From positions 23,161-87,160 of the forward strand of contig JAEDGC010000001.1 of NCBI GenBank assembly GCA_016297695.1: 64,000 nucleotides of DNA, in the 5' to 3' direction. A program made the translations under genes and the position numbers. This DNA comes from Bacilli bacterium (GTDB lineage Bacteria; Bacillota_I; Bacilli_A; RF39; UBA660). Under the pieces are notes generated by a model. That model was not told the origin of the DNA. It did no database searches and worked only from the letters and a program-made list of their open reading frames with translations. Position 1 is the stretch's first letter. Each line of letters opens with the position of its first letter. Below are positions 15,512-16,721 of the stretch, one piece after another.

Positions 15512-15658
15512 AAAAAAATGATAATTTTTTATAGTTTATTGTTTTTGGACTTATCAATCCAAAACTAGAATATTTAATCAGAAGTTTTAAGTCTTTGTAA
15601 ATATTCAAATCTAGACTATGGTAACGGCAACGGGATTTGAACCCATATTATTAGCGTG

Positions 15659-16520
15659 TGGTGATAAAAATAAGATTTGAACTTATATTTTAGACCATTC
15701 TTCATCAGAATATTGTTTTATTTCACAAACTTTTCTTGGTAATTTGAATTTATCACACCATTTTCTAATAGTATTATCAGAAACTTTAAATTGCTCACCT
15801 ATTTTAGTAAATGGTGTTGTTCTAATTAAATCTTTTAACTCATCTCTTGTAACTGGCATTGATTCCAAAGGAATTGTTTTATGTTTAGCATTACAACTTC
15901 GACATCTTATTGTCGTTTCTTTTGTAAGCTCTTTCCCACAATCAATACAGTAATTTTTCTTTTTAAGAGAGGTTTGTTTCATTCGATTTGTTGTTGGAAG
16001 TTGCATATTGCAATTTGGACAAACCCAACGAAGATTTTCTAATCGATCATCTTTATTATTGCCATTTATATGGTCAAGAATTAATGTTAATTCTTTTCCT
16101 TGCCATACTGGCTCTTGCCCACAAATAGCACATTGATAAGAAGAATATTCTCCTTTTTTATACCAGCGTCTAAGTGTGCTTTGATCAGCTGTAGAATTTT
16201 CTATAAAGATATTATCTTCATTTCTTTCAATAGCATTACTATTTACTTTTTTAAAATGTGAAACATCAATATCAAATTCTTCAACCTTTTTTTGAATACG
16301 ATTTTTTAAATCTCCAGAATTGCAATTATAGCCTAATCGCCTTCCCAAATCTCTCCAAGAATTAGCTTGTGAAACAATTAAACTTAATTCTTCTTTTGAA
16401 TATGAATTTAAAAGTGACATAATTTTCAGTCCTTTCTTTTTTTTTATGTTATATATACTGAAAATTAAGTTCAACTTTTTGAACTCGATTGTCCAAAGTT
16501 TTTCATTAAACTATTCCATC
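15659..16520 (-). mobile_element. tRNA-shaped insert carrying an HNH endonuclease gene
   Basis: Starts GATGGAA-TA-GTTT-AATGAA-AAAC (acceptor 5' strand plus D-arm). Ends ATAAG-TTCAAAT-CTTAT-TTTTATC-A-CCA (T-arm, acceptor 3' strand, CCA). The ORF replaces the anticodon arm. Confidence 0.55.
15683..16420 (-). CDS. HNH homing endonuclease
   Basis: ATG at 16420 after GAAAGGAC (the track starts at TTG 16474). HNH core CAICG...DHINGNNKDDRLENLRWVCPNCN, C-terminal CxxC zinc ribbon and HTH-like tail. The stop codon overlaps the T-arm of the insert. Confidence 0.8.
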   Translation of the reverse strand: MSLLNSYSKEELSLIVSQANSWRDLGRRLGYNCNSGDLKNRIQKKVEEFDIDVSHFKKVNSNAIERNEDNIFIENSTADQSTLRRWYKKGEYSSYQCAICGQEPVWQGKELTLILDHINGNNKDDRLENLRWVCPNCNMQLPTTNRMKQTSLKKKNYCIDCGKELTKETTIRCRSCNAKHKTIPLESMPVTRDELKDLIRTTPFTKIGEQFKVSDNTIRKWCDKFKLPRKVCEIKQYSDEEWSKI

Positions 16521-16721
16521 AAGGGCTGATGTCCTGACCTTTTAGACGATGCCGCCATATTGTAGATTACTTTGCCTTATTTTTTGTAGAGAGTTTAAGC
16601 CACGAGCCACATACTTGAATTAATCAATCGGTGGTAGTTTATCTACTTAATCCATGTTTATTCTCTCTATATAATCAGTTTTAATTTAGTTCCGCAGGCT
16701 AATTATATAAGAAACTGCGGC

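Follow-up and report, generated by a model that had tools for sequence, protein, structure and literature searches.

How a tRNA gene can remain of use when its anticodon loop is occupied by another gene is the question raised by a 64,000-nt stretch of phage DNA (NCBI GenBank assembly GCA_016297695.1, contig JAEDGC010000001.1, positions 23,161 to 87,160 of the forward strand; hereafter the window). Within it, the two halves of a tRNA-Glu(UUC) gene are separated by an 862-nt element that itself has the shape of a tRNA and carries an open reading frame (ORF) for an HNH homing endonuclease. The introns expected in the tRNA genes of bacteria and phages are group I introns that splice themselves, and the splicing of tRNAs by proteins is regarded as an archaeal and eukaryal trait. 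The element, with its endonuclease, is best assigned to a new family of mobile inserts of tRNA shape that occupy the anticodon loops of phage tRNAs and are putative introns; the anatomy of these inserts, their conservation and the signal of their mobility are solid. We further propose, with a probability of roughly one half and by reasoning from sequence, that the 862 nt constitute a mobile intron of a kind not described before, itself folded as a tRNA, which would be excised by RNase P and a 3' tRNase, the flanking halves then being ligated.

Anatomy of the interrupted tRNA-Glu gene

The 5' exon of 36 nt (16521..16556, minus strand) covers tRNA positions 1–35, that is, the acceptor 5' strand, the D-arm, the 5' strand of the anticodon stem and the loop nucleotides CCUU, and reads from 16556 to 16521 GGCGGCA-TC-GTCT-AAAAGGTCA-GGAC-A-TCAGC-CCTT. 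The 3' exon of 40 nt (15619..15658, minus strand) contributes the loop nucleotides CAC, the 3' strand of the anticodon stem, the variable loop, the T-arm, the acceptor 3' strand and ACCA (15658–15619: CAC-GCTAA-TAAT-ATGGG-TTCAAAT-CCCGT-TGCCGTT-ACCA). When 16556–16521 and 15658–15619 are joined, ARAGORN calls a tRNA-Glu(ttc) of 76 nt, a cloverleaf with a 7-nt anticodon loop and UUC at positions 34–36, and its body is similar to those of the other five tRNA-Glu hosts of the insert family. The expected spliced junction is ...CAGCCCUU|CACGCUAA..., with the exon-exon k-mer GGACATCAGCCCTTCACGCTAATAAT; the exon-intron k-mers of the gene are CAGCCCTTGATGGAATAG and TTATCACCACACGCTAAT.

The tRNA-shaped insert, a putative intron of 862 nt (15659..16520, minus strand), runs from its G1 to the A of its ACCA, and its boundaries are unable to slide because the flanking nucleotides differ. 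Its 5' start reads GATGGAA-TA-GTTT-AATGAA-AAAC, in which the acceptor-like 5' strand GATGGAA (16514..16520, minus strand) forms 7/7 pairs, two of them G-U, with TTTTATC (15663–15669), and GTTT-AATGAA-AAAC (16498..16511, minus strand) is the inner D-arm. Directly after the D-arm, TTTGGAC (16491..16497, minus strand) forms 7/7 pairs with GTCTAAA (15689..15695, minus strand), which lies two nucleotides before the T-arm and also codes for the C-terminal W-S-K of the endonuclease, and this helix closes the ORF-containing loop where an anticodon stem would sit. The inner T-arm ATAAG-TTCAAAT-CTTAT (15670..15686, minus strand) contains the stop codon TAA of the ORF (15683–15685) and is followed by the acceptor 3' strand TTTTATC and the discriminator-CCA tail ACCA (together 15659..15669, minus strand), so that a 7-bp acceptor stem (7/7 pairs) on a 5-bp T-stem (5/5) with a 7-nt loop, a discriminator and CCA are all present in the window copy. 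The 3' part of the inner element, taken by itself, obtains 22.9 bits with the Rfam tRNA model RF00005, whose cut-off is 29; the gathering score is not reached because a 738-nt ORF replaces the anticodon loop.

The first-pass annotation, made from the letters of the window, had given these coordinates and sequences with three caveats, all of which proved correct on the minus strand. One of them, the G-U pairs at 1-72 and 2-71 of the outer tRNA-Glu, is recorded here; the other two are weighed below.

Conservation of the inner and outer folds

Thirteen inserts, drawn from the window and from loci found through homologues of its HNH protein, were curated (labels such as L001 denote related phage loci compared with the window), and pairs were counted by structural position, as a MAFFT alignment of mini-constructs mis-registered the junctions. 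The inner 7-bp acceptor stem has 90/91 canonical pairs over the 13 inserts, compared with only 33–46 of 84–91 pairs when the 3' strand is slid by 1–3 nt; the terminal stem is therefore not a product of chance. The inner 5-bp T-stem has 65/65 pairs, with a 7-nt loop in all 13. Up to six pair types occur per position in the inner stems, and compensatory acceptor changes are found in orthologues (e.g., GGTAGAA/TTTTACC and GTTGGAT/ATTCAAC), a covariation that bears out the tRNA shape first read from the window. The equivalent of the closing helix also covaries in relatives (e.g., TTTTTCT/GGGAAAA in L258), and the D-arm motif TAGTTTAA..AAAAC is common to the Glu and Lys inserts of the window and to L001, L036, L023, L008, L074, and L161. 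In L038 and L023, the T-stem ATAAG/CTTAT has become ATGAG/CTCAT and the embedded stop codon TAA has become TGA, so that the constraints on RNA and on protein are both kept.

The termini are similarly constrained. G1 is present in 12/13 curated inserts, with U or C at position −1, and the tail is NCCA in 11/13, GCAA in L001 and a single nucleotide in L023; the letters CCA, beyond the mere length of the tail, are conserved. L023 is a phage in which CCA is encoded in 0/15 tRNAs, and the outer tRNAs that host ACCA-tailed inserts all encode CCA. A search with the L023 T-arm pattern yielded no further CCA-less examples.

The assignment of the flanks to tRNA-Glu, already made in the first-pass annotation, is upheld not only by the ARAGORN call but also by Glu orthologues with compensatory changes in the acceptor and anticodon stems, and the flanking halves are conserved in relatives. 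Across the 13 curated hosts, the outer acceptor stem has 91/91 pairs, the anticodon stem 64/65, and the T-stem 61/65, with several pair types per position; the sole anticodon-stem mismatch is C28.A42 of the window. Six spliced tRNA-Glu constructs, five bearing the HNH gene (that of the window included) and the ORF-less one of L008, were all called tRNA-Glu. The outer tRNAs thus look functional.

A family of tRNA-shaped inserts

The family comprises about 30 inserts of 47–880 nt in related gut phages, hosted by at least seven tRNA species (tRNA-Glu, Lys, Gln, Leu(UAA), Arg(UCU), Gly(UCC), and Ile(UAU)) across many phages. In the window, tRNA-Lys(UUU) (17163..17311, minus strand) contains a complete tRNA-like insert of 75 nt (17204–17278; site CTT|TTAA), which passes the Rfam tRNA model as a complete tRNA at 47.1 bits, and a tRNA with a UAA anticodon (19491..19616, minus strand) contains a minihelix insert of 50 nt (19533–19582; site CTT|AAAA). 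That these two are ORF-less miniatures homologous to the Glu insert, as had been suggested, is supported by the same D-arm motif and the T-arm ATAAG-TTCA.A.-CTTAT. A further interrupted tRNA gene (20048–20784, minus strand) holds a 666-nt insert with a PD-(D/E)XK endonuclease of PF11645 (ORF 20099–20719); a 7-bp stem joins the termini of this insert (GTAGAAA/TTTTTAC), which has a tail of 1 nt and no T-arm, and its outer tRNA has no CCA and is followed by an HDV-like ribozyme. Its C1-G72, A73 and restored loop UUUG|GGA fit tRNA-Pro(UGG) rather than the tRNA-Gln called by ARAGORN. PF11645 genes also occur in the tRNA arrays of L027 and L036. The interrupted genes are the only tRNA-Glu, tRNA-Lys, and tRNA-Pro genes within the 64-kb window. 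A default ARAGORN run overlooked the Glu, Lys, Pro, and UAA tRNAs, reporting solely the tRNA-like element inside the Lys gene; in intron mode it set wrong boundaries (Lys was called 'Thr' and Pro 'Gln') and overlooked the Glu gene of the window, and the insert boundaries were re-derived from the inner fold and homology.

An HNH gene within a tRNA-shaped insert within tRNA-Glu recurs in L001 (82% identity), L036 (73%), L038 (70%), and L023/L024/L032 (61%), and the search with HNH homologues gave five tRNA-Glu cases beyond those of a pattern scan, in which the inner T-arm plus ACCA was sought in GTDB genomes and JGI/ENA metagenomes and the hits were filtered by the flanking anticodon stem and by the ARAGORN call on the spliced product. 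The scan yielded 16 further distinct inserts, hosted by tRNA-Arg(UCU), Gly(UCC), Glu, and Lys and by one ambiguous tRNA (L239). A permissive structural scan was of no use, giving 1179 hits compared with 712 in shuffled sequence. A blastn search of GenBank phages gave nothing relevant; the closest named relative, phAss-1 (code 15), has 36 tRNAs and no nested insert in about 130 of its 136 kb (positions 5513–135976), and six other phages found through a kinase encoded in the array (see below) have no nested inserts.

Mobility and insert boundaries

In the sister phages L005 and L006, whose flanking sequences are ~86% identical, the same tRNA-Leu(UAA) gene is intact in L006 and bears a 47-nt insert in L005. 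When exactly GGGTATA...ACTCACCA (...AATACTC-ACCA) is taken out, the L005 exons are 86/86 identical to L006. The insert shares no flanking nucleotide, so that its boundaries cannot slide, and the empty site defines, with no mechanism assumed, the unit gained or lost as the stretch from the first acceptor-like base to the A of CCA. A homologue of the L005 mini-insert is situated in tRNA-Gln of L006, one loop position further on, which points to movement between tRNA species. The view that the inserts form a mobile family has thus gained substance from the range of at least seven host tRNA species, from the exact 47-nt polymorphism, and from the module-bearing copies in tRNA loops described below. 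The same two phages also have (L005, L006 2558–2711) a complete 77-nt amber-suppressor tRNA(CUA) nested at position 36/37 of tRNA-Ile(UAU), CTTAT|...ACCA|AA.

The site of insertion in tRNA-Glu is not fixed: L023 has it at 34/35, the window and L001 have it at 35/36, and L036, L038, and L008 at 36/37, and a 7-nt YYUUCAC loop is restored only by cuts directly 5' of the inner G1 and 3' of the inner A76. Because the site varies and yet the intron is always inner G1 to A76, the cut sites are set by the inner fold and not by the outer tRNA. These ends coincide with the sites of RNase P and of the tRNA 3'-end pathway in any tRNA.

All host tRNAs have U34 (Lys UUU, Glu UUC, Gln UUG, Leu UAA, Arg UCU, Gly UCC, Ile UAU, and, for the PD-(D/E)XK insert, Pro UGG); in the window, U34 is found in 4/4 interrupted and 2/9 uninterrupted tRNAs (Fisher p ~0.02). 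The tRNAs for Lys, Glu, Gln, Leu-UAA, Arg-UCU, and Gly-UCC are the ones that MnmE/G modifies in bacteria (xm5U34) and that anticodon nucleases preferentially attack. The regularity could reflect a target preference of the endonucleases, a preference of RNase P at position −1, the specificity of a ligase, or a phage-host conflict over the anticodon loop.

Endonucleases associated with the inserts

The ORF of the Glu insert (15683..16420, minus strand) encodes 245 amino acids, with an HNH motif at residues ~97–142 and a C-terminal Zn-ribbon and helix-turn-helix at ~152–245. The HNH nuclease motif is recognized by a match to phrog_10822 (E 1.5e-40), by Pfam scores just under the respective cut-offs (HNH_3 at 24.4 bits; HNH and HNH_5), and by I-HmuI (1U3E, E 0.06) as the best PDB match. 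Its 2675 homologues at E<=1e-10 include genes that cluster on tRNA-Glu, being either inside it or ~3–75 nt away. Free-standing HNH genes 3–75 nt from an uninterrupted tRNA-Glu are found in L005/L006, L026, L021/L022, L028, and L039, and in L008 the HNH gene lies 13 nt downstream of a tRNA-Glu that carries a 66-nt ORF-less homologue of the insert. As the HNH gene is so often free-standing beside an intact tRNA-Glu, endonuclease and insert are separable partners and not one indivisible unit; this qualifies the first-pass proposal of an autonomous, endonuclease-carrying mobile insert, which is otherwise supported. L019/L020 and L037 contain decayed versions, with an HNH gene surrounded by an eroded outer tRNA-Glu. 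Some free-standing homologues are preceded by orphan tRNA 5' fragments, e.g., GCCATTTCGCCAAGCGGTAAGGCACAGGATTT (L002–L004, L007 at ~2950–3000, L026 at ~2870–2920, and L027 at ~2905–2920), which resemble scars left by the disruption of tRNA genes in association with the endonuclease. No homologue in cultured phages exceeds 34% identity, and at the PEf771 locus, the only one inspected, the annotation has no tRNA.

The inserts from the pattern scan reveal a modular architecture. Those in tRNA-Glu encode full-length HNH homologues (55% identity), those in tRNA-Arg and tRNA-Gly GIY-YIG domains (PF01541 at 36.9 and 48.4 bits), and those in tRNA-Lys a different HNH-like domain, whereas the C-terminal Zn-ribbon plus helix-turn-helix module (window residues ~152–245) is common to all at 45–58% identity, and the module-bearing ORFs all end in ...W-x-K-I-stop within the T-stem. 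The module lies upstream in 13/240 pattern hits, 12 of them nested in a tRNA loop and the 13th cut by a contig end. A search of metagenomes for endonuclease genes with matching ends in other tRNA loops, recommended in the earlier annotation, has thus produced Arg, Gly, Lys, and Glu cases. The long ORFs of the pattern-scan inserts are open only with TAG as a sense codon, so their host phages use code 15.

The association with tRNA-Glu, the modular architecture and the presence/absence polymorphism together suggest that the inserts are spread at the DNA level by endonucleases. The HNH enzyme of the window would cut insert-free tRNA-Glu genes, and repair of the break from the insert-bearing copy would place its own gene there. 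The Lys and UAA mini-inserts need not be moved by this HNH enzyme.

Predicted splicing mechanism

In the predicted mechanism, a single transcript initiated by the promoter at 16880 would contain the whole pre-tRNA; no intrinsic terminator is found on the coding strand within the Glu insert, and a strong promoter lies upstream. RNase P would cut 5' of the inner G1, so that the 5' exon ends in a 3'-OH, and an enzyme of the RNase Z/BN type would cut behind the inner CCA, or behind N73 in genes that encode no CCA, so that the 3' exon begins with a 5'-phosphate. The exon halves would be held by the outer tRNA fold while an ATP-dependent RNA ligase of the Rnl type seals the nick, as T4 Rnl1 does on broken anticodon loops. 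The released intron would be a tRNA-like RNA that doubles as the endonuclease mRNA, and the ORF-less relatives would release a minihelix or even a complete tRNA. This route of excision is proposed because the conserved 12-bp acceptor/T minihelix, G1, U or C at −1, and RCCA are the determinants of RNase P and of 3' tRNase; with these present and the boundaries coinciding, the insert may be a substrate of RNase P and RNase Z, and the 1-nt tail of L023 corresponds to an RNase Z site after N73. Excision, the holding of the ends, and ligation are three separate predictions, each drawn from sequence.

A P-loop kinase of 146 amino acids is encoded inside the tRNA array (17737–18177, minus strand), matches AAA_33 and KTI12, and is kept in L001. 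Among solved structures, it comes closest to the 5'-OH polynucleotide kinase domain of Clostridium thermocellum Pnkp (E 6.5e-14) and to the tRNA kinase PSTK, which makes it a candidate RNA end-healing enzyme; the presence of a Pnkp-type kinase in the array shows that the phage invests in RNA end-healing.

Several observations weigh against excision by RNase P and a 3' tRNase followed by ligation. No RNA ligase or RtcB was found among the ~40 ORFs of the window with Pfam or PHROGs, and no ligase in a crude motif scan of 273 kb of related phage sequence or among seven ORFs adjoining related arrays. The Bacillus-type RNase Z is inhibited by CCA, so that the enzyme for a cut after an internal CCA is uncertain, although Thermotoga RNase Z and E. 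coli RNase BN provide precedents for cutting after CCA. The Pnk-like kinase and the HAD phosphatases encoded in the window suit the chemistry of 5'-OH and 2',3'-cyclic-phosphate ends better than the ends left by RNase P and RNase Z. In the insert of the putative tRNA-Pro, which has no T-arm, recognition by RNase P and RNase Z is less obvious; the tail of L001 is GCAA and not CCA, and the correlation between the 1-nt tail and CCA-less tRNAs comes from one lineage only. Finally, the window tRNA-Glu itself deviates by C33 in the loop CCUUCAC and by the mismatch C28.A42. The loop CCUUCAC with C33 is also present in two orthologues (L036 and L038), that is, in three lineages in all, and C33 is therefore a clade variant and not a sign of decay.

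A broader proposal, that tRNA-shaped introns as a class hijack the enzymes of tRNA end maturation together with an RNA-repair ligase, are spread by modular HNH and GIY-YIG endonucleases, and are confined to U34 tRNAs, is put forward more tentatively than the reading of the 862-nt element. The restriction to U34 hints at a link with a phage-host conflict over cleavage and repair of the anticodon loop.

Alternative explanations

The alternative that survives best, which we nevertheless regard as unlikely, is that the insert is spliced by other machinery, either a dedicated endonuclease of phage or host or an unrecognized self-cleavage activity, leaving 2',3'-cyclic-phosphate and 5'-OH ends that either undergo healing by the array kinase and a phosphatase before they are sealed or are directly ligated by RtcB; the tRNA-like fold would then have another purpose, be it stability, mimicry, a role like that of Ro/Y-RNA, or exporting the endonuclease mRNA from its precursor. 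This would give a use to the Pnkp-type kinase within the array and to the HAD phosphatase-like ORFs at 41149–41562 and 36930–37373, and HDV-like ribozymes beside tRNAs would mean that cyclic-phosphate chemistry on tRNA ends is already in use in these phages; the PD-(D/E)XK insert in tRNA-Pro, with its terminal helix and no T-arm, and the DUF2828 protein flanking arrays, labeled 'RNA-binding protein' in PHROGs, are also in line with it. However, no known ribozyme family was found by Rfam in any insert at E<=10 and no ORF resembling a splicing endonuclease was found, and an endonuclease that measures its sites would have no need of CCA, G1, a 12-bp minihelix, and boundaries at +1 and 76, all of which are accounted for by excision through RNase P and a 3' tRNase.

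A less probable alternative, to which we give little credence, is that no splicing takes place: a selfish insertion or nested tRNA gene would disrupt tRNA-Glu, tRNA processing would liberate the tRNA-like RNA inside along with the mRNA of the endonuclease, and the outer halves would be discarded, a loss that the phage could bear because the host supplies tRNA-Glu. The eroded outer tRNA-Glu around the HNH gene in L019/L020 and L037 is what such a process would leave behind, and the C33 and stem mismatch of the window copy, the lack of a ligase in the scans made, and the expectation, from what is known of processing in Bacillus, that maturation of a CCA-encoding inner tRNA by a 3'-to-5' exonuclease would destroy the 3' exon, all agree with it. 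It is, however, hard to reconcile with outer stems that retain 91/91, 64/65, and 61/65 pairs with compensatory changes while the endonucleases are only 55–82% identical, with the restoration of a 7-nt loop and the correct anticodon in every case, with C33 being kept in three lineages, with an intact L006 allele that equals the L005 exons exactly, and with interrupted genes that are the sole copies of those tRNAs in the window.

A known type of intron, whether group I/II with an endonuclease ORF or the archaeal bulge-helix-bulge (BHB) type, is highly improbable: group I introns of bacterial tRNAs do typically occupy the anticodon loop and carry a homing-endonuclease ORF, and PF11645 in the neighboring insert is the I-Ssp6803I family, from a tRNA-fMet group I intron, but Rfam at the gathering score and at E<=10 finds no intron or ribozyme family in any insert (no intron model over 14900–20100), only ~124 of the 862 nt are non-coding and the ORF-less homologues of 47–77 nt are far below a group I core, the inserts end in A (12/13) or T (1/13) and not G with 5' exons ending in C in 3/13, so that group I/II introns are excluded, and BHB introns are excluded by inspection of the geometry, the termini forming one continuous 7-bp helix with the 5' site abutting it and the 3' site 4 nt beyond.

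Comparison with known systems

The inserts are worth comparing with the group I introns of tRNA-Leu(UAA), tRNA-fMet (I-Ssp6803I), and Azoarcus tRNA-Ile, with which they have in common the loop site, an optional homing endonuclease and presence/absence polymorphism, tRNA-Leu(UAA) being among the hosts of both. Unlike those introns, they have no ribozyme core, do not follow the U.G/omega-G rules and are tRNA-like with CCA at the end, and their excision must be enzyme-dependent. The BHB introns of archaea and eukaryotes (EndA/TSEN with RtcB or Trl1) are likewise small, loop-sited, removed by protein and joined by a ligase, and vary in position in Archaea; the inserts, in contrast, have no BHB motif, and their splice sites are the 5' and 3' maturation sites of the insert's own tRNA fold instead of symmetric bulges. 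To our knowledge, Firmicutes, the hosts of the phages considered here, lack EndA.

An embedded tRNA-like fold also recruits end-processing enzymes in mascRNA (MALAT1), MEN-beta, the tRNA-miRNAs of MHV68, the t-elements of plant mitochondria, and mitochondrial tRNA punctuation. In mascRNA-type systems, the tRNA-like piece is freed with a CCA end and the flanks are not rejoined, whereas here the flanks are tRNA halves that need ligation. Such ligation has a counterpart in the repair of PrrC-cut tRNA-Lys by T4 Pnkp and Rnl1, in which a nick beside U34 is sealed by the phage, and a Pnkp-type kinase is present in this array too; the T4 repair, however, is a response to a host nuclease and not the removal of an encoded insert, and no Rnl1- or Rnl2-like gene was found here.

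The T5 HNH enzymes are free-standing endonucleases in a phage tRNA cluster. T4 SegB is cited as such an enzyme in PMC13096335. Like T4 SegB and the T5 F-Tfl HNH enzymes, the present endonucleases reside in tRNA arrays, and like modular enzymes such as I-HmuI and I-TevI, they combine HNH or GIY-YIG nuclease domains with exchangeable DNA-binding modules. In clear contrast to the free-standing enzymes, that of the window lies inside a tRNA-shaped insert, where its stop and last codons double as T-stem and anticodon-like stem. No tRNA-shaped introns or tRNAs nested in phage tRNA loops were met with in the literature searched, which covered few subscription journals, so that an earlier description is possible; introns are mentioned neither in the paper on theta ribozymes (PMC10879173) nor in that on phAss-1 (PMC10607447), both of which deal with related phages.

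If the proposed mechanism is true, the recruitment of RNase P and a 3' tRNase by the tRNA shape of the intron itself would represent a new way of intron removal, a natural counterpart of engineered tRNA-flanked processing cassettes, and a case of tRNA repair ligation co-opted for splicing. One gene would then give two tRNA-like products, as with the suppressor in tRNA-Ile of L005/L006 and the tRNA-like RNA in tRNA-Lys of the window. The tRNA repertoires of phages are under-counted, since tRNA finders overlook interrupted genes, and in stop-codon-recoded gut phages a suppressor tRNA can hide within another tRNA. As the endonuclease ORFs of recoded phages need TAG to be read through, the biology of the introns is tied to code switching, and the modular endonucleases, which have their C-terminal domain in common, may yield programmable enzymes for cutting tRNA genes.

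Context of the tRNA array

The window is a phage segment of 30% G+C that encodes a terminase, a portal protein, a sigma factor, and a GH25 lysin; the portal protein is 64% identical to that of a human-faecal phage contig, 36% to that of phage phAss-1, and 28–30% to those of SPbeta-like Firmicutes phages. Stop-codon recoding was checked and rejected for the window, which uses the standard genetic code. The tRNA array (~15,080–20,790, minus strand) is driven by four near-identical promoters, TTGAAA-17-TATAAT (20854, 18455, 17740, and 16880, minus strand), and the interrupted tRNA-Glu lies in its last transcription unit. These four are copies of one extended −10 promoter, TTGAAATTTTAAAAAATTTTTGTTATAATAT, and divide the array into transcription units. 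The DUF2828+DUF7788 protein (13369–14823, minus strand; phrog_850, 'RNA-binding protein', E 4e-101) directly adjoins the array, as its counterparts do elsewhere (L005 408–1976; L027 from 6375), and may have a role in RNA handling.

Sub-threshold matches to HDV-F-prausnitzii are present at 15027–15083 and 19983–20047 (both minus strand; 30 and 21.5 bits against a cut-off of 44), directly 3' of tRNA-Gln (15084–15155) and of the interrupted tRNA at 20048, respectively. They fit the 'theta ribozymes' reported beside gut-phage tRNAs (PMC10879173).

A non-coding stretch of ~470 nt after tRNA-Ser (18505–18978, minus strand), richer in G+C and with an intrinsic terminator at its end (18498–18472), gave no match to Rfam, tmRNA, or RNase P; both its ends look tRNA-like (GGCGGGT...AGGG-ATCGACA-CCTT-GTCCGCC-G-CCA; fold z-score −2.4), and the homologous region of L001 has ~1 kb of extra small ORFs. 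A weak tRNA (31.6 bits; 17511–17584, minus strand) that abuts tRNA-Met has a D-arm (TATAGTTTAACTGTTAAAAC) like that of the inserts and could be a free-standing gene related or ancestral to the insert lineage; the T-arm of tRNA-Trp (16890–16965) is also similar to those of the inserts. At 19340–19460 (minus strand), a Leu-like D-arm (GGCGGAATAGGTAGACGC), a T-arm-like hairpin ATGG-TGCAAAT-CCAT and a pairing acceptor TCAACAG/CTGTTGA surround an aberrant middle, and this region, called by neither ARAGORN nor Rfam, could be a further disrupted or tRNA-like gene. The tRNA at 19651–19728 (minus strand), called by ARAGORN with an apparent 8-nt anticodon loop (anticodon 'tagt') and scoring 44.8 bits with Rfam, could be a frameshift-type or otherwise unusual decoder.

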